In this document: positions 12,126 through 40,438 of the stretch, piece by piece | Layout of the letters: every line of letters starts with the position of its first letter | Numbering within the stretch: position 1 is the stretch's first letter | Assembly: GCA_003598135.1 (NCBI GenBank) | Contig: QZKA01000026.1 | Location: 11,258-75,257, forward strand | Source: Candidatus Omnitrophota bacterium | Lineage (GTDB): Bacteria; Omnitrophota; Gorgyraeia; Gygaellales; Profunditerraquicolaceae | DNA length: 64,000 nucleotides | Direction: 5' to 3' | The notes under the pieces: generated by a model | Database searches by the model: none | What the model was told of the DNA's origin: nothing | Seen by the model: only the letters and a program-made list of their open reading frames with translations | Position numbers and translations under genes: made by a program

Positions 12126-12993
12126 TATCGTTTATCCTGGCGGCGTCGCTTACCATCGAGCCGTATATTTGAAGCATCGTTTTTGCAATGGTGTCGTCGC
12201 CGGTAAGAGGTTTTGCAATTTGCGCAGCAAGCAAAAAAGAAAACGCCATCACAAAAGACACGTCGAATAAAGTAGCATCTACGACCTGATAGGTATATTC
12301 GGCGTAGGCATCCTCATAATCACAAGCAATTACCTTCCTATTGATTGAAGGAAGAAGCAAGGTTTCGTATTCTATGGGCGGTGGATTCTTGTTCCCGGTG
12401 TCCACGAATATCTTACGTATACAAAGGCATTTTACTGGATAACCGTATACATATCCCCATCCGGAACATGTTTGGTCCGCTAATTCCGCGAGAGGCGCCT
12501 TCACCGAAGCAAATCTCCAAGCTTTTGCCCTTAAAACCGCGTCCCTGCTGATTTCGTATATCCTGTTTAAAGCACGCGCACTCTCCAGTTCATCGGTAAG
12601 AGACACTATCGGACTTACACCAATATGCGCTAATGCAAGGTTGCAAATAGCAATGTCAGAAGTAGATGTCCTTCCGAGTATCGCGGTAGGATAATCATCC
12701 GAGCTCACCGCTATGAATGCCTGCGGATACTTTACGTCAAGCGTAGAATCTTCTATCAACACCATATATGTATCTTCTGTAGGCGGAGTAAAACTCTGCT
12801 TCCAGAAAATATCATAATCCCACGTCATAGATCCGCTCGCCTCTGCTACCTGGAAGGCAAGGGTGCTGAAATTCCAGTAATACCCATCTAAAAGACGGCG
12901 TATCGTAATTGTCACTGTGTCGGTAGATACACTTTCCGGAATGGCCTCAACAATGGGAAAATATTGATTGGCTACGATTATCATATATTTCAT
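12073..12993 (-). CDS. putative tail tubular A/adaptor-like structural protein, 306 aa
   Basis: Sits immediately upstream of the gp12-like gene. Confidence 0.45.
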   Translation of the reverse strand: MKYMIIVANQYFPIVEAIPESVSTDTVTITIRRLLDGYYWNFSTLAFQVAEASGSMTWDYDIFWKQSFTPPTEDTYMVLIEDSTLDVKYPQAFIAVSSDDYPTAILGRTSTSDIAICNLALAHIGVSPIVSLTDELESARALNRIYEISRDAVLRAKAWRFASVKAPLAELADQTCSGWGYVYGYPVKCLCIRKIFVDTGNKNPPPIEYETLLLPSINRKVIACDYEDAYAEYTYQVVDATLFDVSFVMAFSFLLAAQIAKPLTGDDTIAKTMLQIYGSMVSDAARINDIEKNIKPTESSSFEDAR

Positions 12994-13002
12994 ATTGTCT
13001 CC

Positions 13003-14511
13003 TTACCTCTGTATTCTGATCATCCTTTCAATACCTGTATAATTTCCGGCTTCTTTTTCGCCGTTTGTATAGTTGCCGATTTGCTGCAACGTTGAGGTGG
13101 TAGCGTTGTTTATGATCCCCAATGCCCCCTTGATCGCCACTTTCTCTGCCTCGCCCCAGTCACCGGTCCCCGATGTCGGCAGCACGTTCATTTTATTCCC
13201 CATGGTGCCGGTGCCGTTGTAGGAAGCCATAGTCGCGTTCCACACTCCGCCGGTGATGTTGGCGATATCCCCCGCGCCGATAGTGGCATTTATCGATTGC
13301 GTGAGCGTCCTGGTCGCATAACCCCATACGTCAGAGGCGCCTAATGTCGAGCGCGAGGATACGGCCGCGTCAAGATATCCGGCCTTGGTTGCATTCCAGG
13401 TAGTATCTGATGTCATATTGCCGGCTGGTTTCTTGTCCCACAGGCCTTTTAAGTAAGTCCCTGCGTAGCCTGCGCCGCTATATCCAGAGATATCCTTATT
13501 CCAGATGTTCGTATATTCGCCTGAGTCAAGTGTAACGCCTGTCTTGTTGGTAATATTCGTTACTAACGGAATGACTGCGCCGGTATGGGCGTTATTGGAA
13601 AGAATAACCTTATTATCTGTGCCAAGCACCCAGTCGGCGAGTTTCTTGCCGATTGAGCCGGCAGTTGTCAGCGCTGAGGTAAGCGCGTCCCAAATGGACT
13701 GTATCGCGGCAGCTGAGAGGCTCCCTATCGATCCGCTTAGGTTGCCGGTGATATTGCCTGTCAGGTTGAACGCTTGCGCGCCTGAGAGGCTGTAACCGGC
13801 CTTATCTGACACGGTAGAGGCGGTATATCCGGTTTTGTCGTCATTCGTGCCTACCGTGACCTTCCCTGCGCTCGTGATGAGCAGACTTGAGAAGTTGCCC
13901 GGGAATGACTGGCTTAAGGTATAACCTGTCTTGTCATTATTGGTCGTGACAGTTACGCCGGTCTGCGGCGTTGACTTGGTATAATTTGAAGCGTCGAATT
14001 GGATTTTGTCGGTCTGTGCCTTGATAGCTACGGAAGTACCATTGATTGATGTAACTGTGCCGTTGATTATTCCCGTGTCGTTCTTGATTGCCTCAAGCCC
14101 GAATGTGGCGTTGTTTATAATGGCATAAGAATCGCTCTCGAGTTTCGAAACGATATCTATTGTTTTTCTGAACGTCCGTACGCCAGCCTTATCCACGTAT
14201 ACTATTAATTCACCTTCTGTATCTGTCATTACTGAGGTAGTATTAAGCCTATACAATCCTGGCATATTAGTTGCATTAATCTCAGTCCATTCAGGCGATG
14301 TAAGGTTTATCGCTTCACCACCCGCCTTTGAGTAATATACTATTGGGGAAGTAACTCCGACCGTCCCAGTGTATCCATCGGTGGAATTGACCAGGAGGAT
14401 AGCAATAGGCGTGATCGAGTTCTGTTTTATCTCAAGCGCAAAGGCGCTTGTAACAAGCATGACACACAAGAATAAAGACAGCAACTTTTCGATAATGGAC
14501 AGTTTCTTCAT
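13003..14511 (-). CDS. tail fibre-like protein with signal peptide and an N/T/G-rich repetitive domain, 502 aa
   Basis: N-terminal signal sequence; repeats NDKTGYTLS / NDDKTGYTAS / SDKAGYSLS; Asn-Thr-Gly-rich composition typical of fibres. Confidence 0.55.
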   Translation of the reverse strand: MKKLSIIEKLLSLFLCVMLVTSAFALEIKQNSITPIAILLVNSTDGYTGTVGVTSPIVYYSKAGGEAINLTSPEWTEINATNMPGLYRLNTTSVMTDTEGELIVYVDKAGVRTFRKTIDIVSKLESDSYAIINNATFGLEAIKNDTGIINGTVTSINGTSVAIKAQTDKIQFDASNYTKSTPQTGVTVTTNNDKTGYTLSQSFPGNFSSLLITSAGKVTVGTNDDKTGYTASTVSDKAGYSLSGAQAFNLTGNITGNLSGSIGSLSAAAIQSIWDALTSALTTAGSIGKKLADWVLGTDNKVILSNNAHTGAVIPLVTNITNKTGVTLDSGEYTNIWNKDISGYSGAGYAGTYLKGLWDKKPAGNMTSDTTWNATKAGYLDAAVSSRSTLGASDVWGYATRTLTQSINATIGAGDIANITGGVWNATMASYNGTGTMGNKMNVLPTSGTGDWGEAEKVAIKGALGIINNATTSTLQQIGNYTNGEKEAGNYTGIERMIRIQR

Positions 14512-15680
14512 TGGTCAAATCCCCCGTTAAATTTATAATCACCATAATAAATCGTTCCATTGCCGCCGCCGGATGTAGTATTCACTCCGGTAACAAGCAG
14601 TGAACCAATATATACCTTCGTTTTATTATCTACCCATGCGCCTTCGTCAGTGCGTTGTGTTGCATACATAAAATCACCGAATTCAGAAGATTGGTTCTTT
14701 ATAATTTCGTCCGGATACGCGTAATACTGCCACGTCATTGTTTCTGTTGTTTGGTTAGTGAATATAATAAACCGATATGTTTCTCCCTGGTTTAATGTAA
14801 TTGTAGGCCAGCCTACTCTATAAGGCCCGTGGTTATTTGATTGGCGTACACCTATATTAACCGTGGTATTGGAAAGTACTACATTCGTTGCATTCAGTAT
14901 TTTTATGAAGCCAAAATTAGTATCACATTTAAGTGCAAGATACGCACCTGACACGTTCATCGTAAACGGCGGAATAATGACATTGCCTATTTCATCGGGG
15001 TCAAGATTGCTTCTTACGGTATCTTTTCCTTGTTGTGCAATCGAAGAAAGCCCAGTAACAAATGGCGTTGAACCGTCGCTATACTCCAGTCCACCAAGCC
15101 CTTGACTAACTCCCCTTGCCCAGGAAGTGGTATATAGGGCGGTATAGGGGTGCAATCCGCCAAAATATGCTGATACCCGAGATACAGTAAAATTGCCATA
15201 GTCGCTTCCAGGATTTTTTATAGTAAGTGCTGCCACACTGCCTGCAAGCCCTGTTACATTCACAGGCTGATTGAGAGAGACAGTATGATAAGTATTATTA
15301 TGTGTATCGGCAATAAGCCTATATATTGCTTGCGAATCAGCGCCAAGCAATGAACCGGAAGGATCTCCTGACGATAAATTAACCGTTTCTAAAGCTACCG
15401 TTGCATTTGCACCGGTGCTTACGCCAGTAGTTCTAAAAGATACTTTAGAGATAGTGCCATTTTTAGGGATATAAAATATAAAAGCTGCTGTCTCATCGGC
15501 GGCATCAACCAACATCGTAGCGATTGCAGGCTCTCCCGCGGCATTAGTAGCTTCGATAGGGAAAAGGAACGCCCCGCTTATCATTGCGCTATAACCGACT
15601 TTTAAAATCAGCACTATGGACAATGCCAATGGACATAATATACCAGATGCTTTAATTTTATTCCGCACTCCACGCCTCAT
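14508..15680 (-). CDS. secreted/anchored N,T-rich structural protein, 390 aa (fibre/spike-like)
   Basis: N-terminal hydrophobic segment; NxT/S-rich, beta-rich composition. Confidence 0.5.
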   Translation of the reverse strand: MRRGVRNKIKASGILCPLALSIVLILKVGYSAMISGAFLFPIEATNAAGEPAIATMLVDAADETAAFIFYIPKNGTISKVSFRTTGVSTGANATVALETVNLSSGDPSGSLLGADSQAIYRLIADTHNNTYHTVSLNQPVNVTGLAGSVAALTIKNPGSDYGNFTVSRVSAYFGGLHPYTALYTTSWARGVSQGLGGLEYSDGSTPFVTGLSSIAQQGKDTVRSNLDPDEIGNVIIPPFTMNVSGAYLALKCDTNFGFIKILNATNVVLSNTTVNIGVRQSNNHGPYRVGWPTITLNQGETYRFIIFTNQTTETMTWQYYAYPDEIIKNQSSEFGDFMYATQRTDEGAWVDNKTKVYIGSLLVTGVNTTSGGGNGTIYYGDYKFNGGFDQ

Positions 15681-15972
15681 CTTTTTGAATATCTACTTTT
15701 GTGCTAATGGTATAATTTAATAAAGATTGTGCTTTTGATTTTTTGAAAAAAACTTTGATTTGTTTAAGCGCTTCGCTGTCATTATCAGACTGAGGTTCCT
15801 TTACCTCATCCTTAGTGGTGATTTCCACAACTTCGCCCTTCTCATTCTCGATATTGATATGTCTGCACGTATTTCCATTAGGCGCAATGACGATAGTATA
15901 ATTTTCTCCCCACGCCCTTCCACCTACCGCCAATCCCAGCACCAGCGCCATTGCTATAATCAGTTTTTTCAT
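15658..15972 (-). CDS. small secreted protein, 104 aa
   Basis: Signal peptide MKKLIIAMALVLGLAVGGRAWG. Confidence 0.45.
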   Translation of the reverse strand: MKKLIIAMALVLGLAVGGRAWGENYTIVIAPNGNTCRHINIENEKGEVVEITTKDEVKEPQSDNDSEALKQIKVFFKKSKAQSLLNYTISTKVDIQKDEAWSAE

Positions 15973-16022
15973 AGGGTTACTCCTTAAATAGCGGGCCCGC
16001 CGTAGGACGGACCCGCGATTGC

Positions 16023-16358
16023 TTACTTCTGCTGGCGCTTCTTAGCCTTGGCAACAATAGCCCTTATTTTCTGCTGGCTGATGTCTCTGGCTAACACTTC
16101 CAGTAATTCTTCTTGATTCAGTACCTCGGCATCTTTAATACCGTGGCTCTTGGCTTCAACCAACAGCTCTTCGCGTGCTACAGCAGCTGCAGTCGTTGGT
16201 TCTTCCTGCTTCTGCTCTTTGACTGCTGCGGATTCTGCTTTTATCTTTTTAAAATGCTTAGGAGGATTCATTTCAGGGTCTATCTCTACAATCTCCCCCT
16301 TCTCCCAGTACCTGTTTTGGAATCCGTAACAGTCTCTTAAAACTTCGTACTTAGCCAT
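16023..16358 (-). CDS. phage protein with a C-terminal HeH/Rho-N-like motif, 111 aa
   Basis: C-terminal LLVEAKSHGIKDAEVLNQEELLEVLA resembles a Rho-N/HeH DNA-binding motif. Confidence 0.45.
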   Translation of the reverse strand: MAKYEVLRDCYGFQNRYWEKGEIVEIDPEMNPPKHFKKIKAESAAVKEQKQEEPTTAAAVAREELLVEAKSHGIKDAEVLNQEELLEVLARDISQQKIRAIVAKAKKRQQK

Positions 16359-16372
16359 GTTTTCCTTTCTCC

Positions 16373-17128
16373 TTACGCGTCAGCAATGGTAAAAGTAACC
16401 TGCAGCATAAATGCCGGCGGGTTAGCAGTAGATCCATTGGTTACGGCAAGGACTAATTTTTCCCCAGCTGCCAATACTTTGTATGTTCCGCTTAATGCTC
16501 CTAAGCTGCCGGAAGCATTTTCATCCGGGAACGGAGTTTCGTTATCATAGGTTGCCGTGGCAATAGCGTTTGAGCCGTTCTTAATGGCTACTGCGCAGGT
16601 GTTACCGGCATCAATACCGGCCGCTGTGCCGTGCGAGATGATCCTGGCATCGGTAATGGTAAAGACCATCCCCGTGGGTACTTCGAGTAAGGCTTTAGCC
16701 GCGATATCCGCACCCGCTGCGAGATCTTCTACCTGATAATTAACTACCCTGGTGTTTGCCGTTGCCGTCATCTTTGCAGGCGGCAAGAAGCCGTCGGCAA
16801 ACAATGCTCTGGTAGAAGCATCTGCAACAAAAGCGCCGTCTGCGATAAGAAGAAGCAGTACGGCGTTTGTGAAGCTGTCGGCATCAAACTTAGCCAAGAC
16901 CGTAGCAGCATCGAAGAAATCATCTGCTATCTTGCCTCTGCCTGCAGCGGAAGCTGCCAAGGCCCCGGCAAGTATCTTGGCTGTCGTCACCGCATCATCT
17001 GCGGGCGTGCCGGTGGTTACCGCTTTGGAATTCGTTCCGTCATGATCATGCCCATTCGCCGTGTCAAAGACAAGGCAAAGTAGGTCGACCAGTTCGGCCA
17101 CGTTTTTGAAATTGTAATATACGCTCAT
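16373..17128 (-). CDS. putative virion structural/decoration protein, 251 aa
   Basis: Ala/Thr/Gly-rich beta-type composition in the head-gene block. Confidence 0.45.
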   Translation of the reverse strand: MSVYYNFKNVAELVDLLCLVFDTANGHDHDGTNSKAVTTGTPADDAVTTAKILAGALAASAAGRGKIADDFFDAATVLAKFDADSFTNAVLLLLIADGAFVADASTRALFADGFLPPAKMTATANTRVVNYQVEDLAAGADIAAKALLEVPTGMVFTITDARIISHGTAAGIDAGNTCAVAIKNGSNAIATATYDNETPFPDENASGSLGALSGTYKVLAAGEKLVLAVTNGSTANPPAFMLQVTFTIADA

Positions 17129-17148
17129 GGTTCTCCTCTCTGGTTAAT

Positions 17149-17177
17149 AAGGGGCCTGCTTTATGGGCAGGCCCCTT
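17149..17177 (-). terminator. GC-rich hairpin (AGGGGCCTGC...GCAGGCCCCT) after the capsid-proximal genes
   Basis: 10-bp perfect GC stem between two same-strand genes; weak U-tract. Confidence 0.4.
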
Positions 17178-17187
17178 GGTTACCTAC

Positions 17188-17598
17188 TTAGGCTATGTTC
17201 ACATCCGGTGTTAAAAACGCATCGATGGTGCCGGAAGTTATGGCTTCTCCGCTTTCAGTGTAATAAAGCCTGATATATCTCTGCAGGCCCGGAGGAAGCT
17301 TAATCTTCCAGACGATTGTGTTGACAGTCAAAGCTGCTTGCGCGAACGTCTTTGAGACATGGACTATTTTGGTGCTGTTTGTGGAAAAATCTTCCACGCT
17401 GTCGCTTTCCAAGGCGATATTCAAAGAAGCTCCGTGCCCTGAAGAGTCTATAGCCGTACCTATCCTCACTACGAGGTAAAGCTCAGCTCCGGCGACTGCG
17501 TCACCGGCTTTCGTCATGTCTATGACATTGGTGCTTGCGCCTGTAGCATCCGTGGCAGCCTGAAGCGCGGAAAATAAAAGATGTGCATCTTTAATCAT
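17188..17598 (-). CDS. small head-associated protein, 136 aa
   Basis: ORF directly downstream of the capsid gene. Confidence 0.45.
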   Translation of the reverse strand: MIKDAHLLFSALQAATDATGASTNVIDMTKAGDAVAGAELYLVVRIGTAIDSSGHGASLNIALESDSVEDFSTNSTKIVHVSKTFAQAALTVNTIVWKIKLPPGLQRYIRLYYTESGEAITSGTIDAFLTPDVNIA

Positions 17599-17635
17599 GG
17601 TATCTCTCCTTCGTTTAGTTTCGGTTAAACTACGT

Positions 17636-18643
17636 TTACGATACTAATGATTCGGTGTTGAGGATCTTGTCGCACCGACGGATAGGAATGCCGAAGAAGC
17701 GCGTAATCGGCTTTCCGTTCTCAAGGCTGTCGATGGTAAGATTTACATTGCTCTTGTTGTACGCCTTGATGTCGAGGGCGGTTTTCACCGTCTTGTTGCA
17801 GTACCACGCTACGCGCCCTACGTTGAGAGTGGGTACTTTGTTCAAGGCCTGAATCATGAGCTTGATGAGGTTCGCTGAGACATCAGAGGTGTCGCCGGCT
17901 GTGGCCAATGCAGACACTTCCAGGTTGCAGATACGCACGGCATATCTCCAGTCTCTCACTGCAAGACCCAAACGGGTCTTGTACTGATCGATGTAGGCGC
18001 GGAACTGCCCTGCCGGGGTCTGGTCGTCGTTCACGAGCTGCTTGCCTAAATCTTCATGCTCGATGCCTGCCTTGGTGCCGCGGGGATAAAATGCATGGAT
18101 GGTATTCTCGCCCCATACCACTAACCAGATCGAGGTATTATCTGTATCTGCGCTGCCGCCCAAGATCACGTTTTCGCCTGAGGCTGCAGTCGTAGATGAG
18201 TAATACGCGGAAAGGCCGGTGAATCTCTCAGGGTTCGTTTCTACGTTGCCGTAGAAAAACGTGGTGGCCATGGTCTGAGAGATTGCCTCAATGAACGGGG
18301 CATTCTCAGAAAGCCTGAAGGCTGCTTTGTCAACTGCAATGTTGACGAGCTCTTCGTCAACGCGGCCCAAGCCTTCGATGATACCGGCAGTAAACAACTG
18401 CTGCTTGGTTTGAGACTTAGAGGGCTGCACGCCTCTGTTTATCTGTCTCCAGGCGACTGTCGGCAAGCCTGTTCTTATGGTACTCTTATGGCCGGTCGTG
18501 GTGTTTCCTTCGATGAACACGAGATCGCTCAATATCTCGTTGACCTCGTTCATCATTTCTGCGATGCGGGCAATTTTCCCGTTCGGATCAAGCCGTCTTG
18601 CATGATCCATCAGGGTTAAATTTGTATTCGCGATAGTAGGCAT
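17636..18643 (-). CDS. major capsid protein (HK97-fold type), 335 aa
   Basis: Size and position immediately after the scaffold gene in portal-scaffold-capsid order. Confidence 0.55.
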   Translation of the reverse strand: MPTIANTNLTLMDHARRLDPNGKIARIAEMMNEVNEILSDLVFIEGNTTTGHKSTIRTGLPTVAWRQINRGVQPSKSQTKQQLFTAGIIEGLGRVDEELVNIAVDKAAFRLSENAPFIEAISQTMATTFFYGNVETNPERFTGLSAYYSSTTAASGENVILGGSADTDNTSIWLVVWGENTIHAFYPRGTKAGIEHEDLGKQLVNDDQTPAGQFRAYIDQYKTRLGLAVRDWRYAVRICNLEVSALATAGDTSDVSANLIKLMIQALNKVPTLNVGRVAWYCNKTVKTALDIKAYNKSNVNLTIDSLENGKPITRFFGIPIRRCDKILNTESLVS

Positions 18644-19900: not shown

Positions 19901-21643
19901 TTATTTCGCTCCTGCAGGCTGCGTAGCCGGCTCCTGCTTCTGCGGCATAGATTTCCCTGTCATGGCAGCGATTACTGCGTCAAGGGCGCTATTCTCGCCT
20001 ATTCTGGCTTCAGATAGAGTCTTTGCGCCTTGGGCTGCTATCATACCTGACTGCGCTTGTTGCACACGAAGCTGCGCTTCTTGTTTTGCTTTACGGATTA
20101 CTGCAACCATCTCAGCGCTTCTTAATAGCCGCGCAGGAATTCCTTTCATCTCAGCGTAGGTTTCAACAGCCTCATCAAAATCAAATTTATCTATCACGTT
20201 TGCGTCAATTTTTGATAAATCGCCTACGAAGCCGCATACTTGCTCTATTGCGCTTGTCCCTACCATCTTCTGCGCTTGGGCAAGAACGGAGATATACTCC
20301 ACCTTTATGTCCTGCCCCTCAAGTTCTACGGGCGGTTCCGGTATAAGCCCGGCTCGCAACATCTTGGCGAAGGTAATGTCTATACAAGGATCAAACAGCT
20401 GAGTCTCTAATCCATCGAGTATCGAGCCAAGCATAAGCAGTTTCTCTTCATGGCGTTCTGCTATTTCCCGTGCGGTAATGTCGGTGCGATCTAAATTCTG
20501 CAGCATCAGGAATAAGTCAACATAGAACGTGCTGCCGATATCCTGCTTGGTGATATTAATGGTTTCCTCTAACTCTTTGAAATTAATCTGTACCTGATAG
20601 ACCGCGCGTACTCCTGCGTTCGGCACAGAGGCGGAGCTTGTGTTCACTCCCCCCGGCAAAGTATTGACTTCGCCGCTCACCGATGCGTCTTTCTGAACGG
20701 CCGGGTCTACTGTTTTATCAAGGCCCAACAGCTTCTTCCTCTGCAGTTTCTGCAACATCTTGCAGTCGCCTAATGCGTCCCAGCCCGGTCCTTTCCCATA
20801 GATGTCGCTTGTCGTGGTGGTTGCCCAACGCGGGGCCAATATAGAGAATTCCCTAAATCCCCCTACTCTTAAGAAACAATCCTGAGGAGATCCTTCTTCC
20901 CATTGGATGGAACGATAGGGCATGTTCTTGAAATCTTCCCTGTGCGGTATTCTTTTATCGTTCTCTTCCACAAGGTGAATTACTGAAATCCACTTATCAA
21001 CATCTTTCGATAAGTCGTAGGCGTCCTTTACGGTAGGGCTGACGTTATCGATCCCGAACTCCTTTACCAACTGTCCTGCGGTCATCCAGTACCTTCTGGC
21101 AAACCCATTTACCCTGCCGTCAGGCCCAATACTGAGCCAATATTCGCCGCAGGTAAAGTTATAGCCGCGGATTACCGTATCATAATCATCGACAATAATC
21201 GCAGCTGCGGTGGCGAACGATCCAAGTTCTTCGTAAATTGAATAGAAAATCTCGTAAATATTAGACCGAGAGAACACGTTCAGCATTCTCTCCTGGACTA
21301 TATCGAGCCATAGCTTTACGTTGTCGTTCTCCATAAGATCCGGATCATCGACACCAAGCCTGAACCATGGCCGCGTAGGGCTCGTCATTCCGTTCAGCAT
21401 TCCTGAAGCTAATGTGCGCACGCATCTTCTCGGATAGCCGGACAGCATCGTCTTGTGATCTATGGCCTGCCCTTTATTCGGTTGGTCGTCAAAAAAGCCG
21501 CGCGTGGGGATTTCGTATAATTTGATATCTTTCCAGGTTGGAAGCCAAGACTGCGCCTCATTCTTCATAGCGCTTACGCGGCGCTCGAATTCTTTCCTGT
21601 CAAGACCTACGCCTATCTTCTCTTTAGTTTGTTCTGCCATCAT
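19901..21643 (-). CDS. portal protein, 580 aa
   Basis: Size and position downstream of terminase and upstream of scaffold. Confidence 0.6.
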   Translation of the reverse strand: MMAEQTKEKIGVGLDRKEFERRVSAMKNEAQSWLPTWKDIKLYEIPTRGFFDDQPNKGQAIDHKTMLSGYPRRCVRTLASGMLNGMTSPTRPWFRLGVDDPDLMENDNVKLWLDIVQERMLNVFSRSNIYEIFYSIYEELGSFATAAAIIVDDYDTVIRGYNFTCGEYWLSIGPDGRVNGFARRYWMTAGQLVKEFGIDNVSPTVKDAYDLSKDVDKWISVIHLVEENDKRIPHREDFKNMPYRSIQWEEGSPQDCFLRVGGFREFSILAPRWATTTTSDIYGKGPGWDALGDCKMLQKLQRKKLLGLDKTVDPAVQKDASVSGEVNTLPGGVNTSSASVPNAGVRAVYQVQINFKELEETINITKQDIGSTFYVDLFLMLQNLDRTDITAREIAERHEEKLLMLGSILDGLETQLFDPCIDITFAKMLRAGLIPEPPVELEGQDIKVEYISVLAQAQKMVGTSAIEQVCGFVGDLSKIDANVIDKFDFDEAVETYAEMKGIPARLLRSAEMVAVIRKAKQEAQLRVQQAQSGMIAAQGAKTLSEARIGENSALDAVIAAMTGKSMPQKQEPATQPAGAK

Positions 21644-23169: not shown

Positions 23170-24651
23170 TTAGCTTAACGGGTCGTATTCTTTCTTCTGA
23201 CCGAAATTCTCTTCATTGCTCTTTTTTTTCACGACGGGGAATGCGAATGTTAAAGCGAGGGCATCTGCGTTGCTGGGTGAAGCTAATCCTCTATCTTTCA
23301 TCTGCTTCTTTGATTCCAGAACGATTTCTCCTTTTAAATTCGGGTATGCTTCCGGCCCGGTTAAATCATCTACTAAACGTTGATCATCAGGAATACATCC
23401 ACCTTCTTCGAGCCATTTCTTTGTCTTAGCCCAGATCTCTGCGCGCTTATTCGCGAATCCTGGCGTACTGGATTTTGAGCCGAAAGAACAAAGCAGCCAT
23501 TGCCGATTCATTGACTTGCCGATAGAATAAACTCCTGTGCCGTAGCCTAAGTCAATGATGACGCCGTCTGCTTTTTCTTGGTCTTCCCACTTTGCTACTG
23601 CAGCAGCAATGACTGTATCATCATCGTTCTTTGCGAATTTCTGTAAGCGCCTGTAGACTAACCCTTGCCTGATACCGATCAGGACCTCATCGCCGCCGGT
23701 CCAGGCCATGTCTACGCCGATGATCTTGGGTGCAAACACGTACTTATGCGCTTCTATCTGCTTGCCTTTTGCGGATTCAGCTAAGTCCGTAGGAATAAAC
23801 TGCAGATCCCCTGCTTTGGGAAATAAACCAAGAACATGCACACGTACCCAGTCACTATCTATGCCAAGATCTTCTATCCATTCCTTAACCTTCTGCTGGT
23901 TAACTAATATTGACTTACGGATATCAAGCTGCCATTGCTTCCAGCGATGCCGTAGTTTGGCGAAGCATTCTTTAAAGCGGCCGGTATTGCGGGTAGGGTT
24001 ACCGAAGACAAGCCATAAAATCTGCGTACCGGTATCGGTTAATGCGCCTTCTGTAACTTCCCAGATTGTATCCGGAATAGCTGAGGCTTCATCGAATATT
24101 ACCAGAATGCGTTTGCCCTTATTGTGAAGGCCCGCGAATGCCTCAGTCTTATGTTCGCTCCAAGGCACCTGATCTATACGCCACGTTCTTTCATGCTCAG
24201 GGTCTTTTGCGTAGATAGCTGTGGCTGTCAGTTCAAACCAATGCTTTATTATGCATAGACGATACCATTTGCTTAGCTCTGCCCATGTCTTGGTTTTAAG
24301 CTGAGTCTCTGTATTGGCGGTTACCGTTCCCCTGGTGTCTTCAAAAGTAGACAGGCCCCAAAGGATGATCCAAGCTACAAGCGCACTTTTCCCCGGACCA
24401 TTGCCTGAAGCTACGGCAATCTGAATCACATAGTTTATGGCGCCTTGGGCATTAAGCTTACCGGCCTGCAACTGATCGCGGATATACTGCAAGACTTCGC
24501 TCTGCCATCTATCCGGGCCTTTATAGCCTATGAGTTCTTCTTTGCCCCACTTGAAAGCATAAAGGACCCAACCGTAAGGGTCCTTCTCGTATGAGGCTAT
24601 GTCTTCTATAAGGGCTCTCTCAGCCTTTACGTCCTCTTCGGTTGTGAGCAT
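23170..24651 (-). CDS. terL: terminase large subunit
   Basis: P-loop ASGNGPGKS, Walker B VIFDEASAIPD, C-terminal nuclease-like region; follows the small subunit. Confidence 0.85.
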   Translation of the reverse strand: MLTTEEDVKAERALIEDIASYEKDPYGWVLYAFKWGKEELIGYKGPDRWQSEVLQYIRDQLQAGKLNAQGAINYVIQIAVASGNGPGKSALVAWIILWGLSTFEDTRGTVTANTETQLKTKTWAELSKWYRLCIIKHWFELTATAIYAKDPEHERTWRIDQVPWSEHKTEAFAGLHNKGKRILVIFDEASAIPDTIWEVTEGALTDTGTQILWLVFGNPTRNTGRFKECFAKLRHRWKQWQLDIRKSILVNQQKVKEWIEDLGIDSDWVRVHVLGLFPKAGDLQFIPTDLAESAKGKQIEAHKYVFAPKIIGVDMAWTGGDEVLIGIRQGLVYRRLQKFAKNDDDTVIAAAVAKWEDQEKADGVIIDLGYGTGVYSIGKSMNRQWLLCSFGSKSSTPGFANKRAEIWAKTKKWLEEGGCIPDDQRLVDDLTGPEAYPNLKGEIVLESKKQMKDRGLASPSNADALALTFAFPVVKKKSNEENFGQKKEYDPLS

Positions 24652-25198
24652 GTTTTGTCCTCATTCGCGCCTCTTTTATTCTATCCGCAAGGCCTTCAAG
24701 GCCCCTGTGTTCGGTTACATCGGTAAACATCTTTAGATGCTTGCCTAAGAGCTCAAGCGTTTTTGTTTTGTCGCAAAGCTTAATCTTCTTAGTGTAGCCG
24801 ATATGTTCTCTATCTTCTCCGCGACCTTCAAATAACTCTTCTGTTTCTATAGCAATAATTGCCTTCCGCAATGGTTCAGGCATATCTTGGATATCTTTGA
24901 GCTCGCCGTTCTCATCATAAGCATCCGCAATATCTATTGTGGCGTGCTTAAGCAGTTCTTTAATAACAAGGTCAGTGTTTAATTTAAGCCGGTTAATTTG
25001 CGCTGCTATCAATTCATTCACCCGCGCTTTAATCATAACATTTGATAACAAACGCGAAGCTTGCTCTTGGGCTGTCTTGCGTGAGTATTTAGCGCGGATT
25101 GCTGCTTGAGTGCCGTTGCGGTCTTTTAAGTATTCATGACAAAACCGCTCTTGCTGCGGAGTAAGTGGCCTAAGCTTGTTTTCTTCTTTTATTTCCAT
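24620..25198 (-). CDS. terS: terminase small subunit
   Basis: N-terminal LTPQQERFCHEYLKDRNGTQAAIRAKYS matches the classic TerS motif. Confidence 0.8.
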   Translation of the reverse strand: MEIKEENKLRPLTPQQERFCHEYLKDRNGTQAAIRAKYSRKTAQEQASRLLSNVMIKARVNELIAAQINRLKLNTDLVIKELLKHATIDIADAYDENGELKDIQDMPEPLRKAIIAIETEELFEGRGEDREHIGYTKKIKLCDKTKTLELLGKHLKMFTDVTEHRGLEGLADRIKEARMRTKHAHNRRGRKG

Positions 25199-25534: not shown

Positions 25535-25801
25535 TCATCGTATCACTACCGCGATCCTCCCTTCCGGAAGCGCAAAATAATGCTGGCCAGCGTAGTCAAA
25601 CTCGGTTGTGGCCGGCGCGCTGACAATTATCTGGTCGTTCCGTTTTATTCCACTCTTGCATTGGCTGCCTACGTCTATCACCCGAAACACCGAGTCAGCC
25701 TTGACTACTCCTTTAACAACATCAGGCACTACTATCTGACCGTTCTCTTTTTCTTGCAACTGCACGATTACGAATTCCCCTATTGCTCTTGGTCTTGCCA
25801 T
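25535..25801 (-). CDS. GroES/Cpn10-fold protein, phage-encoded, 88 aa
   Basis: Pattern FVIVQ..NGQIVVPD...RVIDVG...DQIIV resembles co-chaperonin GroES with a shortened mobile loop. Confidence 0.45.
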   Translation of the reverse strand: MARPRAIGEFVIVQLQEKENGQIVVPDVVKGVVKADSVFRVIDVGSQCKSGIKRNDQIIVSAPATTEFDYAGQHYFALPEGRIAVVIR

Positions 25802-25843
25802 GTACTACTCCTTTCTTTTATTCTTCCTCGCTGGTTTTTTTTA

Positions 25844-25927
25844 TTGCGGGGGTGGGATTCGAACCCACGGTGTCCTTTCGGATACATGGTTATGGGCCAT
25901 GCGACCTCGCCACTGGTCAACCCCGCG
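25844..25927 (-). tRNA. phage-encoded tRNA, apparent anticodon CAT, atypical long variable region
   Basis: D-arm GACC-AGTGGCGA-GGTC, anticodon arm CATGG-CCCATAA-CCATG, T-arm GTGGG-TTCGAAT-CCCAC, 6-bp acceptor with C1-A72 mismatch and A73; 16-nt variable region. Confidence 0.6.
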
Positions 25928-25943
25928 ATTGATTTATCTTTTC

Positions 25944-26372
25944 TTATTCCTGCTCTTCCTCTACCTCAGGCGCCTTATATTCTTCTACTTCTTCCCCGAG
26001 ATCGATGCGCTTTCTTCTTGCTTCGCCGATTGCCTTCACCAGCTCAACGCGGATTTTCCTAATAACGAATTTCGAATATGCCTCAAGTTCCGCGCGCAGC
26101 TGATCAACCAGGTTTTTGATGTTATCAGACGAAACCTTTTCCGTACCCCCCCCTAAAGCTTGACGTTTTTTATAGAGTTTTAATTTAGAAACTCCAGCTG
26201 CGACGCTTCCTCCGGATTTCTTCTGGTGGCCGTGCAAGATATAATGCAGCACCGAAGAAGCAACTTTGATTTGATACTGGTCTTGAAAAAATTTAATAAT
26301 CTCACAAGGCCTCTTTCCGTCCTTAGCCATCGCCCTGCATTGTTCTTTCTGACCCTCTGTTAACTTCGCCAT
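25944..26372 (-). CDS. HTH DNA-binding protein, 142 aa
   Basis: N-terminal HTH-like segment; upstream of the tRNA and downstream of the ParB-like gene. Confidence 0.45.
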   Translation of the reverse strand: MAKLTEGQKEQCRAMAKDGKRPCEIIKFFQDQYQIKVASSVLHYILHGHQKKSGGSVAAGVSKLKLYKKRQALGGGTEKVSSDNIKNLVDQLRAELEAYSKFVIRKIRVELVKAIGEARRKRIDLGEEVEEYKAPEVEEEQE

Positions 26373-26461: not shown

Positions 26462-26641
26462 TTATAATTGTTCGTTAACGCACAACATCAATTCCGTAAA
26501 ATCAACCTTTTCGCTGTTTGATAAATCGCGCAGCCATTCCGTTAAATTCATTACTCGGCACCATTCATCCGGAGTAACAGCTGCCTCCGGATCGGTGAGG
26601 CGATAGATCTTGCCTTCCTTGGTTTTAAGTACGAGTCTCAT
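26462..26641 (-). CDS. small ORF, 59 aa, start overlaps the ParB-like stop (ATGA)
   Basis: ATGA coupling with the upstream gene. Confidence 0.3.
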   Translation of the reverse strand: MRLVLKTKEGKIYRLTDPEAAVTPDEWCRVMNLTEWLRDLSNSEKVDFTELMLCVNEQL

Positions 26642-28275
26642 TTCACCAGCTCCTTCGGCACCTTGCCCTTTGGCGCATTCTTAAGGATAAACGCCACAAG
26701 CGCGCTTTTCTTATCTTCTGTCGTATCGATGTTAACATTCAGCTCCTTGGCCAGCTTCGCCAGCTGGTCCTTAGTCATGGCCTGTAGATAACTTTCAGCG
26801 ATCACATAATCCTTAGCCATGGAGAAACCGAGTTTGGTGGAGAGAAAATTAAGATCTTCGTCATCAATAACTTTGGGTTTTTCCGCGATAACTTTTCCGA
26901 TAAGTTCTTGCACCACCGTATCTCCAAGTTCATAAATCTTTGGAATACTGTACGGCCTACCGTATTCTTTACCGCCTTTTATCTTATCTTTAACGATCGC
27001 CTGAGACTCACTCCAACCCATATCGTTTAACAATATGAATAACGTAAGCACATTCCTGCAACGCTGATCCTTGGTAACTGATACCTTGCTAATCCAGAAA
27101 CCACGCTTTGCTTCCCGGACCCGGTTCTCTGTTTTGGATTTGGCGAGATCCTTTACCCGAGGGCCCTCACTGGCGTTAAGTTTAATCCCGGCTTTCCTTA
27201 GGATTTTAGGCACGTCTGCATTATTCACCATTTCAATAATCTTTCCAGAGAATGGATGCACCGCAAAAACCGTTTTAACGTCTTTGCTTGCCTTAAACAA
27301 CTGTCTGAGGGAAAGATATTTATGGTTATAGTAATTCCTTTCATCCACGTTAGAATATTTACGCTCCGGCGTGGTATCGCTTTCATACTCAAAGAGTTTC
27401 TTCGCTTCCTCTTGAGATACCACTTCTTTGCCCTGGGCTTTCAGCCTGGTAATTGTCCGCTGGGTACGCGCCTGTTTCTTCGCTTCAAAGCATCCCGGAT
27501 CCGTACAAGTATCCGCTGCGCTTACGTCCGCGAATAATTCTTTTTGATTCCCGGTCCTTTTAGGACAATCCACGCAGGATCCTTTTCCGGCCAGGCCTTT
27601 TTCTTTAGTATCGAATTGCGCCTCCTTAAGCTGCAGCATAAAGTTTTTGTGGATATACTCCTGGGCTTCCCGATAACTATAAGGTTCCTTACCCCACTGT
27701 CCTCCCTTGGCCACCTGGACGCCGGCTTCTTTCTGCAGATCCTTAGGTACCCTGGCCACCAGGAGCGCAACCGATGGGCTGAATTTCCCATCATAGAACA
27801 ACTTGCGATTCTCCGGGATCAGCTCGCAAAGCTTAAGCCGGCCGTAAATATATGTCGGGCTCTTGCCGACTTTAGCCGCGATATCCTTGACGTCTTTATA
27901 TCCGTGCTTTTTCATTAAGGCTTCGTATCCCTCGGCTTCTTCCAGGGGATGCACGTCCTCGCGCTGCAGGTTTTCGATCACCATGCACTCCAGGGCCTGC
28001 TGATCCGTAAGCTGTCTGATCACGGCCGGGATCTCTTCAAGGCCTGCCGCGGCAGCTGCGCGCATGCGCCGCTCACCGCAGACCAGCTCATAAACATCTC
28101 GGACAGCCGGTCCACGTTGTGTCGTTTTGCCTAACAGCCTTACCAGGATCGGGTTAATGATTCCTTTCTCTTTAACCGACGCGGTCAACTCTTTCATCTT
28201 TGCTTCGTCAAAAGTCTGGCGCGCATTACGGCCAGATGTTTTGATGTCTTTAAGGCTTATCGATTTCATGTCCAT
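26638..28275 (-). CDS. ParB-like nuclease domain protein with a long C-terminal extension, 545 aa
   Basis: GERRMRAA...VIENLQREDVHPLEEAEGY ParB/Srx N-domain motifs. Confidence 0.7.
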   Translation of the reverse strand: MDMKSISLKDIKTSGRNARQTFDEAKMKELTASVKEKGIINPILVRLLGKTTQRGPAVRDVYELVCGERRMRAAAAAGLEEIPAVIRQLTDQQALECMVIENLQREDVHPLEEAEGYEALMKKHGYKDVKDIAAKVGKSPTYIYGRLKLCELIPENRKLFYDGKFSPSVALLVARVPKDLQKEAGVQVAKGGQWGKEPYSYREAQEYIHKNFMLQLKEAQFDTKEKGLAGKGSCVDCPKRTGNQKELFADVSAADTCTDPGCFEAKKQARTQRTITRLKAQGKEVVSQEEAKKLFEYESDTTPERKYSNVDERNYYNHKYLSLRQLFKASKDVKTVFAVHPFSGKIIEMVNNADVPKILRKAGIKLNASEGPRVKDLAKSKTENRVREAKRGFWISKVSVTKDQRCRNVLTLFILLNDMGWSESQAIVKDKIKGGKEYGRPYSIPKIYELGDTVVQELIGKVIAEKPKVIDDEDLNFLSTKLGFSMAKDYVIAESYLQAMTKDQLAKLAKELNVNIDTTEDKKSALVAFILKNAPKGKVPKELVK

Positions 28276-37733: not shown

Positions 37734-37891
37734 AAACCGGCATCAAGCTTATCCTGAAACTTATCGGTTATGGTTTCCTTATCTACTATCTTGTTATCTG
37801 CAGCATCGCTAATTGGACCGGCAAGACTCAATATCTCCGCTTCCCCTGGGGTAACACTCCCATTCGATCATACCAAGACGTAGATCCATGA
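37730..37891 (+). CDS. small membrane protein, 53 aa, ATGA-coupled to both neighbours
   Basis: Hydrophobic segment LILKLIGYGFLIYYLVICSIANW. Confidence 0.35.
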   Translation: MKTGIKLILKLIGYGFLIYYLVICSIANWTGKTQYLRFPWGNTPIRSYQDVDP

Positions 37892-38901
37892 GTTCTCTCT
37901 ACCGCCGCAGTGGTATCTACTGGCTCTCTTACCGTCAATATGGGAAGGGCCATTGTATGAGTCTTGAAACCCGGGATCGGTCTACCGCACTCTATAAAAA
38001 AGCCGAAAAAGACAAAGAGCTGATTGAGGGTAGAAGCGTGATCCCTAAAGCGAATGCCACGTGCGCTCCCCTATTGGAAGAATTTCACAACTACAATCTG
38101 CACCGCAAGACAAAAGACGCCAATTCAGATGATTGCAGCAGGATTAAGAAGTTTCTTTCCTGGGCCGGTATCTCATCGTTTAATCAAATCACTGAACAGC
38201 GACTGCAGGAATACCTTAACCATCGCTTCTCTACAGAAAAAATAGCCCCGCGCACGGCGAATATGATCATCACCAATCTTAAAACTTGGCTCAATTTTTG
38301 CGTTAAGAATAGGAGGATACCGGAAAATCCCCTGGCGCGCATGAAGAAGTTTAAAGAACCGGTTAATCCTAAGCGATTCCTCAGCCGCGAAGAGATCAAC
38401 TCTTTGCTCAAAGAGACTCAAAACGATGAGCATTACTGTAACGGGGACGCTTCACTGTATCCGGTAATTGCGATGGGGATATACGCCGGGTTGCGTAAGC
38501 AAGAAATATTCAGCCTGGACTGGCAGGATATCAATTTCAAACGCGAGGAAATAACGGTCAGGAATAAAGCTAACTTTGCTCCAAAATCGAGGAATTTCAG
38601 GGTTGTGCCATTGCACGAGAATCTCAAGAAGATACTGAAGCCTTTGGTCAAGAATAGCGGCCGGTGCTTCGATGTTACGAATCAACGCAGGATATTCGGC
38701 AGGATTACAAAAAAAGCCAATCTTACAGGGATTGGCTGGCATACCTTGCGACACACCTTTGCTTCTCAGCTTGTCATGGCTGGGGTTGACCTGGCTACCG
38801 TGGCTAAACTGCTGGGCCACTCAAGCATCACCACTACGATGATCTACAGCCACCTTTCTCCGGACCATGTCCGGGGGGCTATAGATAAACTCAGCTTCTA
38901 A
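37888..38901 (+). CDS. int: tyrosine integrase
   Basis: Catalytic R (GLRKQE), HTLRHTFAS (HxxR), MIYSHL (Tyr). Confidence 0.85.
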   Translation: MSSLYRRSGIYWLSYRQYGKGHCMSLETRDRSTALYKKAEKDKELIEGRSVIPKANATCAPLLEEFHNYNLHRKTKDANSDDCSRIKKFLSWAGISSFNQITEQRLQEYLNHRFSTEKIAPRTANMIITNLKTWLNFCVKNRRIPENPLARMKKFKEPVNPKRFLSREEINSLLKETQNDEHYCNGDASLYPVIAMGIYAGLRKQEIFSLDWQDINFKREEITVRNKANFAPKSRNFRVVPLHENLKKILKPLVKNSGRCFDVTNQRRIFGRITKKANLTGIGWHTLRHTFASQLVMAGVDLATVAKLLGHSSITTTMIYSHLSPDHVRGAIDKLSF

Positions 38902-38977: not shown

Positions 38978-39015
38978 TTATGAGTCACCTGCTCTACCAC
39001 TGAGCTATGGGCCCC
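38978..39015 (-). pseudogene. tRNA-Met (CAT) 5' fragment; probable prophage attachment junction
   Basis: GGGGCCCATAGCTCAGTGGTAGAGCAGGTGACTCATAA matches elongator tRNA-Met through the anticodon loop, then homology ends; no T-arm. Confidence 0.5.
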
Positions 39016-39249: not shown

Positions 39250-39350
39250 ATTGCCGATAAAAGCAAACTATCCGAAAGGGTAGGACGCAAAGCTACAGGG
39301 CCTAAAGACCGCGCAAGCGGAACATGGTAGCCAGTTGCCGAAGCGAACGC
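39250..39350 (+). ncRNA. cyclic-di-GMP-I (GEMM) riboswitch aptamer
   Basis: GCAAAC-UAUCC-GAAA-GGGUAG-GACGCAAAGC..GGGCCUAAAG..ACCGC-GCAA-GCGG..GGUAGCC matches conserved GEMM-I elements (compare the Vc2 aptamer). Confidence 0.75.
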
Positions 39351-39874: not shown

Positions 39875-40204
39875 TTATGTGTTCTTGAGGAGATGGTAGC
39901 TTCCCATCAAGTCAGTTTCTTCCAGGTCAATCCCTGCCATATATCTATTACAAATGGTAGATTTTGACCAAACGACCATGCCGCGGGTAAACAGGGGTTC
40001 TTGATGGTGTGGGAAATACAGCCATATACCTACAATCATACGCACAGAGAGTTCTTCGCTTGTTACAAGGCAAAGGCCTTTAGCGCAGACATTGTAAGTC
40101 TCGGCATCGTTGTTGTAATACGAATCTGAGCTGCAATACTTCACCGCGAGCCTTGCTGAGCAACGTTCAAATACCCTCCGGTCTTCAAAACCTAGGTCAT
40201 CCAT
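39875..40204 (-). CDS. PilZ domain (c-di-GMP receptor) protein, 109 aa
   Basis: RRVFER (RxxxR) and a downstream D/NxSxxG-like segment. Confidence 0.45.
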   Translation of the reverse strand: MDDLGFEDRRVFERCSARLAVKYCSSDSYYNNDAETYNVCAKGLCLVTSEELSVRMIVGIWLYFPHHQEPLFTRGMVVWSKSTICNRYMAGIDLEETDLMGSYHLLKNT

Positions 40205-40438
40205 CTCTCTCCTGTATGCCGGTAATAAAAAGACCGCGCTGCCCCCTTTTCCGGCAACCCGGCTATCGAAAACCGCTACATTCGACCCGTAGGCTTTCCG
40301 CTTCTCAAATACACGAGATTTGGCTTTTTCGGTGAAGGATTGCTCCTAATATAATAATAATTAATAATTAACAAAAATCAAGGGGTCAAAGGGGCCTGGA
40401 AGAAAGCGTTTTCACAAGAGAAAACAAAATACCGGGAT

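Follow-up and report, generated by a model that had tools for sequence, protein, structure and literature searches.

Why does a prophage carry a tRNA gene with a CAU anticodon while its integrase gene adjoins a fragment of another tRNA gene that reads the same anticodon? The initial annotation of this locus offered two answers, namely that the phage tRNA compensates for a host elongator tRNA-Met gene disrupted by the integration, or that it serves phage translation. We analyzed the complete 64-kb stretch of DNA, in the following referred to as the window. We consider it likely that the prophage carries the gene for an initiator tRNA (tRNAfMet type) which belongs to a phage-restricted class, combines a canonical initiator with a hairpin in the variable region and serves phage growth.

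The prophage tRNA gene and its initiator features

The gene is located at positions 25844..25927 on the minus strand and is the sole tRNA gene detected by ARAGORN in the window, where it was reported as tRNA-Met(cat) at 25843-25928. The Rfam model RF00005 matched from 25927 to 25844 with 47.9 bits (E 3.7e-7; gathering score 29). Up to the discriminator base A73 the gene comprises 84 nt, and CCA is not encoded. The RNA begins with the acceptor strand CGCGGGG (25921..25927), which is followed by UU, the D arm (GACC, AGUGGCGA, GGUC), a single G and the anticodon arm (CAUGG, CCCAUAA, CCAUG). The variable region UAUCCGAAAGGACACC (25869..25884), the T arm (GUGGG, UUCGAAU, CCCAC), the second acceptor strand CCCCGCA (25845-25851) and A73 at 25844 complete the molecule. 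Pairing of the two acceptor strands leaves C1 and A72 unpaired. The anticodon CAU (positions 34-36) occupies 25892..25894 and the adjoining base 25895 is C33; sequence and ARAGORN led to the same reading of this loop. The variable region of 16 nt contains a stem of 3 bp (UCC/GGA) with a GAAA loop.

The minimum-free-energy fold of the tRNA is a cloverleaf with this extra hairpin; it has an energy of -35.4 kcal/mol (z = -3.0) and accounts for 65% of the ensemble. Pairing is perfect in the four stems as well as in the extra arm. The D stem consists of 4 bp with an 8-nt loop. Moreover, U8, A14, G18G19, G15 with C available at 48, and GGUUCGAAUCC are all intact. In the drawing provided by ARAGORN the acceptor has 8 bp, which resembles the 8/5 branch of tRNA-Sec. 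We rejected this drawing since the eighth pair is formed by the leader base U(-1) opposite A73. Hence, the tRNA-like gene proposed in the initial annotation is real. Its canonical D and T arms, the CCCATAA loop, the C1-A72 mismatch with A73 and the 16-nt variable region were all described correctly, and ARAGORN retained Met (CAT) as isotype and anticodon. The remark that this is not a standard Met, Ile2 or fMet architecture was also right; an initiator acceptor is combined with a long arm.

The acceptor CGCGGGG/CCCCGCA-A is common to host-type initiators from seven phyla and to the E. coli initiator sequence. Determinants described for methionyl-tRNA formyltransferase are an unpaired C1-A72 assisted by A73 as well as G2:C71, C3:G70 and G4:C69 (PMC9976931), all of which are present in the phage tRNA. 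Besides, it carries A11:U24 in the D stem and, as identity elements for MetRS, the CAU anticodon together with A73. In the anticodon stem we found G30:C40 and G31:C39 with U:A at 29:41, so that two of the three initiator G:C pairs are present. The E. coli metY/metZ initiator shares the CAU anticodon, A37A38, the acceptor with its C1xA72 mismatch, A73, A11:U24, G30:C40, G31:C39 and a standard T arm. In contrast to the E. coli initiator, the phage tRNA is prophage-encoded and has a hairpin variable region of 16 nt, where the E. coli tRNA has 5 nt (initiators have a variable loop of 4-5 nt). Further differences are C33 in place of U33, U29:A41 in place of G:C and another D-arm sequence, and an alignment of the two showed matches in only 59 of 86 columns. 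Judged by its sequence, the tRNA qualifies as an initiator; the exceptions among the criteria are the length of the variable arm, C33 and the pair at 29:41. It is best filed as a phage-encoded initiator with a class-II-like arm. To our knowledge every initiator tRNA described so far is of the short-arm type (class I).

The tRNA gene is in line with the surrounding minus-strand genes and lies between a replication/ParB module and the terminase genes. On its higher-coordinate side are a gene for a ParB-like protein (26638-28275), a small ORF without family assignment (26462-26641) and, upstream of the tRNA, an ORF of 142 aa (25944..26372). Neither the 142-aa ORF nor a 59-aa ORF near the tRNA could be assigned to a Pfam or PHROG family, and IMG/VR contained no relatives of either. 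Downstream follow a Cpn10/GroES-like ORF (25535..25801), the gene for the small terminase subunit (24620-25198), an ORF of 493 aa in the position of the large terminase without Pfam family (23170-24651) and the portal protein gene (19901-21643), all of them on the minus strand. The left edge of the window cuts through an ORF of at least 2122 aa, and the left end of the prophage therefore lies outside the window. On the other side, a tyrosine integrase gene is located on the plus strand (37888..38901; PF00589, E 1.2e-26), with the host genes rpoD and groES/groEL to its right. Between the prophage and rpoD, Rfam also identified two c-di-GMP-I riboswitches. We found no sigma-70-like promoter on the minus strand near the tRNA, which is probably made from a read-through transcript.

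The closest relative of the tRNA was identified on a metagenome contig (L105), directly after a ParB-like gene. Both tRNAs are 96% identical and differ at three bases, all located in loops (the D loop, U33 and the loop of the extra arm), whereas the adjoining ParB-like proteins are only ~63% identical. Nucleotide similarity between the window and L105 is confined to the tRNA +/- 4 nt. The difference between tRNA and protein identity points to selection acting on the tRNA or to its recent transfer. The 142-aa ORF belongs to the same variable segment as the tRNA and is absent from L105. Since its 96% identical relative has U33, C33 is a private change of the window tRNA and represents a recent single-base change of uncertain effect. 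Position 33 is U in nearly all tRNAs and, as far as we know, bacterial initiators otherwise have U33 without exception. In the family described below, 49 of 51 members have U33, including L105, and two have C33, which recurs independently in a member 78% identical to the window tRNA (L114). C33 is normal in initiator tRNAs of multicellular eukaryotes, and in vitro a U33C exchange stopped E. coli TsaBCDE from modifying the E. coli initiator tRNA (PMC8887486). Therefore, the copy in the window may be impaired.

Other relatives of the phage did not contain the gene. In six phages with the Cpn10-like gene (72-97% identity) there was no tRNA upstream of this gene in the fetched loci, and none was found in the fetched loci of twelve relatives with the 493-aa ORF (70-97% identity). 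As close relatives lack the tRNA gene, it appears to be dispensable for this type of phage. Judging from the loci compared, it is a sporadic accessory gene in this phage group.

A family of long-arm initiator-like tRNAs

We scanned sequence collections with a pattern consisting of CGCGGGG, 23-28 nt, YCATAA, 18-30 nt and GGTTCRAATCC, which corresponds to the initiator 5' strand and a CAU loop with a variable region of at least ~10 nt. The pattern matched 10 loci in IMG/VR and 93 loci in JGI metagenomes. We removed matches containing N, chance matches in coding sequences, junction hybrids as well as three loci that resembled duplication artefacts or were poorly formed (L022, L036 and L080). After this, 51 distinct, well-paired long-arm initiator-like tRNAs remained, with the window's own tRNA counted. 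Since CGCGGGG, YCAUAA and GGUUCRAAUCC were required by the pattern, the retrieved tRNAs owe part of their initiator features to the search itself; the 3' acceptor strand, position 73, the pair 11:24 and the arm were left free. All 51 members have a mismatch at 1:72 (C.U in 38, C.A in 12 and C.C in one), 49 have A73 and 47 have A:U at 11:24. G30:C40 is the only invariant pair among 29:41, 30:40 and 31:39, and CCA is not encoded in 28 members. Two further candidates, L052 824-898 and L070 947-1019, had been considered as second initiators and were rejected, as they have a paired U1:A72.

The variable regions of the family comprise 12-22 nt and form a hairpin in 46 of 51 members, frequently with GAAA, GCAA or GUAA as loop. 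Their mean folding energy is -3.72 kcal/mol compared to -0.74 kcal/mol for shuffled sequences (sd of the set mean 0.15). A covariance model (R1) was built from 45 members including the window tRNA, which scored 79.4 bits, a fit that is overstated for a member of the training set. In the alignment based on R1, the proportion of pairing cells is 94%, while shuffles reach 72% and slid partners 42-54%. This structural alignment supports all five helices, with compensatory changes at six of six pairs in the helix of the extra arm. The alignment is fitted to the structure and thus leans towards it, whereas the shuffle test on the unaligned variable regions is independent. The tRNA of the window shows the features that define the class, i.e. 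an initiator acceptor with a 1:72 mismatch, a CAU loop and a hairpin variable region within 12-22 nt.

At least three tRNAs were found in 58 of 71 loci, with up to 25 in a single locus, and several contigs of the family are 100-490 kb long. Such numbers of tRNAs are typical of the arrays of large lytic phages. Normal-length initiator-type tRNAs are more frequent in IMG/VR than long ones (at least 120 compared to 10). Among GenBank phage records, a 635-kb uncultured phage carries an initiator of normal length and 735-kb uncultured phages gave partial matches; none of these records represented a cultured phage with a long-arm initiator. The same pattern yielded 12 hits among 185,579 representative genomes (one per species), with the window's own genome not among the hits, and none of the 12 was a clean long-arm initiator. 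Eight contained N runs or tandem duplications at assembly joins, and the remaining four were another oddity, an initiator 5' half fused to a hairpin. Host-type initiator 5' halves that are fused past the anticodon loop to a covarying CCCGC-NNNN-GCGGG hairpin occur in genomes of Verrucomicrobia and Acidobacteria and in soil metagenomes.

The open-access full-text literature, where absence is not proof, contained no description of long-arm initiator tRNAs that we could find. They apparently represent an undescribed and phage-restricted class. While the single gene in the window is ordinary in its likely role, the class to which it belongs would surprise tRNA specialists. Similar combinations are known from allo-tRNAs with 8/4 or 9/3 branches and from nematode V-arm tRNAs (PMC5389517). 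Their identity is Ser or Leu, their acceptor/T branches are altered, and they function as decoders of the missense or nonsense type. Like the phage tRNA, these carry a long arm on the anticodon of a short-arm family and were mined from metagenomes, in part from phages. In contrast to them, the window tRNA keeps the 7/5 branch and the full initiator identity.

The tRNA fragment beside the integrase

The integrase gene abuts the 5' half of a tRNA gene with a CAU anticodon (tRNA positions 1-38; 38978..39014, minus strand), which constitutes the att identity block at the integrase-proximal junction. Read from 39014 to 38978 the fragment is GGGCCCAUAGCUCAGUGGUAGAGCAGGUGACUCAUAA and is followed by non-tRNA sequence. 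Neither ARAGORN nor Rfam reported a complete tRNA at this site. The initial annotation was accordingly right to place a truncated CAT tRNA next to the integrase, while its designation as elongator tRNA-Met has not been established. Among 5,426 E. coli genomes, the best match of the fragment was a CAU gene annotated as tRNA-Ile, which agrees with the whole fragment at 34 of 38 positions (89.5%). Moreover, the fragment has G1, C4 and C5. These features suggest that it is not an initiator and is more likely derived from a tRNA-Ile2 than from an elongator tRNA-Met. An alignment with the 5' half of the phage tRNA showed matches in 24 of 43 columns.

A related phage contig (L124) with an 82% identical integrase and the same att arm sequence carries an identical 37-nt tRNA 5' half between the integrase gene and the tail-fibre/retroelement genes. 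Past this half follow a DGR-type reverse transcriptase gene, a tail-fibre gene and a homologue of the leftmost 2.3 kb of the window. This indicates that the 5' half is part of the phage's own attP and that the identity block comprises 37 bp and is of the reconstituting type. Usually phages carry the 3' part of a tRNA gene, and the arrangement with a 5' half mirrors this. Integration should therefore join the 5' half of the phage and the 3' half of the host to a whole gene at the far junction, which lies outside the window (by analogy with L124, some 7-8 kb to the left of position 1), and the fragment in the window would be a leftover duplicate. A disruption of the host gene, as originally assumed, is thus doubtful. 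Searches for the T-loop, for GGGCCCC and for direct repeats revealed neither a tRNA 3' half nor an att repeat within the window, since the prophage runs off its left edge.

Alternative readings and the possible role of the extra arm

In 2024, Guerrero-Bustamante and Hatfull described a tRNA-dependent lysogeny (PMC10865867) characterized by a core of 8-17 bp, a host tRNA gene that is not rebuilt and a phage tRNA of matching isotype. Applied to our locus, the phage would have integrated into an essential host CAU tRNA gene that is not restored, and the lost function would be taken over by the CAU tRNA of the phage. The locus resembles the mycobacteriophage Fionnbharth and the Gordonia phages that integrate at tRNA-Ile2-CAT in several points. 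A tyrosine integrase adjoins a tRNA fragment that ends right past the anticodon loop, the phage sequence after the fragment does not complete the tRNA, and both the phage tRNA and the att fragment read CAU. Nevertheless, we regard this explanation as very unlikely. The core is 37 bp and not ~10 bp, the 5' half is carried in attP as in L124, and the gene should be intact at the far junction. The phage tRNA has an initiator acceptor (C1xA72, G4, G5) and is of another functional class than the tRNA-Ile(CAU)-like fragment, to which it shows only the limited similarity given above. Furthermore, no tRNA was present in L124 and in a second contig (L008), which share the integrase type, in 27 kb of a 43.6-kb genome including the position equivalent to that of the tRNA, and a minus-strand promoter for expression in the lysogen was not found either. 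The different class, the long core and the missing co-occurrence with the integrase argue against the proposed compensation for a disrupted tRNA-Met, as do the twelve relatives without the tRNA. Judging from these sequence comparisons, the tRNA is probably an accessory gene unrelated to the integration site and the idea of compensation is probably wrong. The case also calls for caution, as a match between the anticodons of a phage tRNA and of the tRNA at the att site does not by itself point to tRNA-dependent lysogeny, given that three functional classes share CAU and that the 5' half of the target gene can be part of the phage genome.

Two other explanations concern the tRNA itself. It might be a decaying or inactive remnant of a phage initiator which lost its function by the U33C change and is drifting in the prophage. 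The rarity of C33 in the family, U33 in the closest relative, U:A at 29:41, the lack of an encoded CCA and the absence of the gene from all other relatives of the phage are in line with such a decay. However, the perfectly paired stems and extra arm, the intact U8, A14, G18G19, G15/C48 and GGUUCGAAUCC, and only three loop differences from L105 while the flanking proteins diverged to ~63% speak for a maintained gene. In addition, more than half of the family members likewise lack an encoded CCA, and C33 works in eukaryotic initiators (PMC8887486). Taken together, we consider decay unlikely. Alternatively, the tRNA could act in elongation, where it would decode AUG or AUA either as a long-arm tRNA charged by LeuRS or SerRS or as a tRNA-Ile2 modified by TilS. 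Bacterial tRNA-Leu also combines a long variable arm with A73, the arm sequence UCCGAAAGGA is found in phage tRNA-Leu and tRNA-Pro genes as well, misdecoding non-canonical V-arm tRNAs exist (PMC5389517), and the 8-bp acceptor drawn by ARAGORN recalls tRNA-Sec. Yet the eighth pair of this drawing involves the leader base, the 7/5 branch and the 4-bp D stem with its 8-nt loop are not of the tRNA-Sec or allo type, neither G73 nor U73 is present for SerRS, and the extra arm has only 3 bp. The tRNA shares the long variable arm with class II, Sec and allo-tRNAs, but its CAU anticodon does not match theirs. In E. coli tRNA-Ile2, the pairs C4:G69 and C5:G68 play a role for TilS. The phage tRNA has G4:C69 and G5:C68 instead, whereas C4 and C5 are found in the att fragment. 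Moreover, position 1:72 is unpaired throughout the family, a classic feature that excludes initiators from elongation. Altogether, a function in elongation is extremely improbable.

We therefore return to the reading as a phage initiator tRNA. Of the two suggestions in the initial annotation, a service to phage translation is the better one, and its role as an initiator had only been hinted at there. According to this proposal, host RNase P and 3' processing would cut the tRNA from the read-through transcript and a host enzyme would add CCA. Following known identity rules, host MetRS could charge it via the CAU anticodon and A73, and host formyltransferase could formylate it via C1xA72, G2:C71, C3:G70, G4:C69 and A11:U24. 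Entry into the P site of the 30S subunit would be mediated by G30:C40 and G31:C39. The tRNA might thereby provide extra initiator capacity during lytic growth. The covarying arm on phage initiators raises the questions how formyltransferase, IF2/IF3 and the P site can accommodate it and why phages add such arms at all. Besides, orthogonal or tagged initiator tRNAs could be engineered on the natural scaffold of a long-arm initiator.

Our best guess on the extra arm, which is speculative, is that it sets phage tRNAs apart in structure from those of the host, for example to escape tRNA-targeting nucleases or toxins. Host VapC toxins are known to cleave tRNAfMet, and an evasion of tRNA-targeting enzymes has been proposed for phage tRNAs whose anticodon loops are altered (PMC10264068). 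Moreover, a tRNA-Lys of phage T5 was shown to neutralise the PARIS defence (PMC11464382). As in these cases, the window tRNA copies a host tRNA species and keeps its decoding identity while its structure departs from the host version. The anti-defence tRNAs differ from it in that they carry point changes in the anticodon loop, some of them supported by experiments, whereas the window tRNA has a whole extra arm and has not been linked to a nuclease or defence system.

The arm is not restricted to initiators. In the same arrays, 19 of 48 tRNA-Thr and 6 of 20 tRNA-Asn have a length of at least 82 nt, and this also applies to some Ile, Lys, Pro, Glu and Arg tRNAs. These long arms on other short-arm isoacceptors indicate that the extra arm is a wider habit of certain phage tRNA sets and not specific to initiators. 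As it is conserved, covaries across unrelated phages and occurs on other short-arm tRNAs, it probably has a general role independent of the isotype. In a broader version, which we put forward tentatively and consider doubtful, initiator, Thr, Asn, Pro, Ile and Lys tRNAs with a class-II-style arm would form a phage tRNA class of its own. Here, the arm would serve as a self-mark by which phage tRNAs escape tRNA-targeting nucleases or toxins, be they host defences or enzymes of the phage for host shutoff, the tRNAs would still be compatible with host MetRS, formyltransferase and ribosomes, and the prophage tRNA would be a single-gene outpost of this class. With regard to the individual arm sequences, a tRNA-Pro in L114 carries the arm UUCCGAAAGGA, which is nearly the same as the arm of the window tRNA.

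Long variable arms and normal-length CAU tRNAs in related loci

Across the 71 family loci, which were collected around long-variable-arm initiator tRNAs, long variable-arm hairpins were also found on isoacceptors of the phage tRNA arrays that belong to the short-arm class I. Examples lie in L114 (3312-3571) and L009 (7359-7443, 8121-8207 and 8565-8650), and example lengths were 87 nt for tRNA-Pro(UGG), 83-85 nt for tRNA-Thr(UGU), 80-87 nt for tRNA-Asn and 86 nt for tRNA-Ile(GAU). A size of at least 82 nt was reached by 19 of the 48 tRNA-Thr and 6 of the 20 tRNA-Asn in these loci. The arm of the L114 tRNA-Pro, UUCCGAAAGGA, is almost the same as that of the prophage initiator-type tRNA in the window.

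Some phage loci moreover carry a CAU tRNA of normal length within 250 nt of the long-arm initiator, as in L052 (824-898) and L070 (947-1019). Both have the acceptor UGCGGGU/ACCCGCA with a paired U1:A72 and look like initiator-like sequences that were changed to an elongator-type end.

Host initiator 5' halves joined to a hairpin

A different arrangement was observed after canonical host initiator tRNA 5' halves, where a covarying hairpin CCCGC-NNNN-GCGGG replaces the 3' strand of the anticodon stem and the tRNA part reaches through CUCAUAA. It occurs in L019, L020, L026, L027, L033, L048, L050, L054, L056, L059, L063, L073, L089, L096, L098, L100 and L112, which derive from Verrucomicrobia and Acidobacteria genome bins and from soil and peat metagenomes. 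The example in L027 (5509-5592) retains the T arm and CCCCGCAACCA. These fusions could mark junctions where elements have inserted into tRNA-fMet at its anticodon loop; alternatively, they could represent a real unusual RNA.

Attachment site and neighbouring elements

The phage attP usually carries the 3' portion of its target tRNA. In contrast, the phage attP considered here (window 38978-39014, and 11091-11127 in the related phage contig L124) holds the 5' half, which spans position 1 through the anticodon loop. In L124 a promoter-like element of the TGnTATAAT type is located about 165 nt upstream of this half (11290-11321, minus strand).

Two c-di-GMP-I riboswitch aptamers, one at 39252-39342 (plus strand, 70.4 bits) and one at 40250-40334 (minus strand, 48.5 bits), are found in the 1.4 kb that separate rpoD from the prophage junction. 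No ORF of at least 70 aa was found downstream of the former on its own strand; a 109-aa ORF (39875-40204) follows the latter.

Left edge of the window and a possible retroelement in L124

The left edge of the window cuts through an ORF of 2122 aa or more (1-6366, minus strand), whose product is probably a giant prophage protein of the tail or for host interaction. The end of this ORF shares 80% DNA identity with L124 18725-21011. In L124 a reverse transcriptase (phrog_1423, E 2e-118) and an adjoining 743-aa tail-fibre gene occupy 12846-18233, a pair that looks like a diversity-generating retroelement; the counterpart of this region in the window prophage would lie past the left edge.
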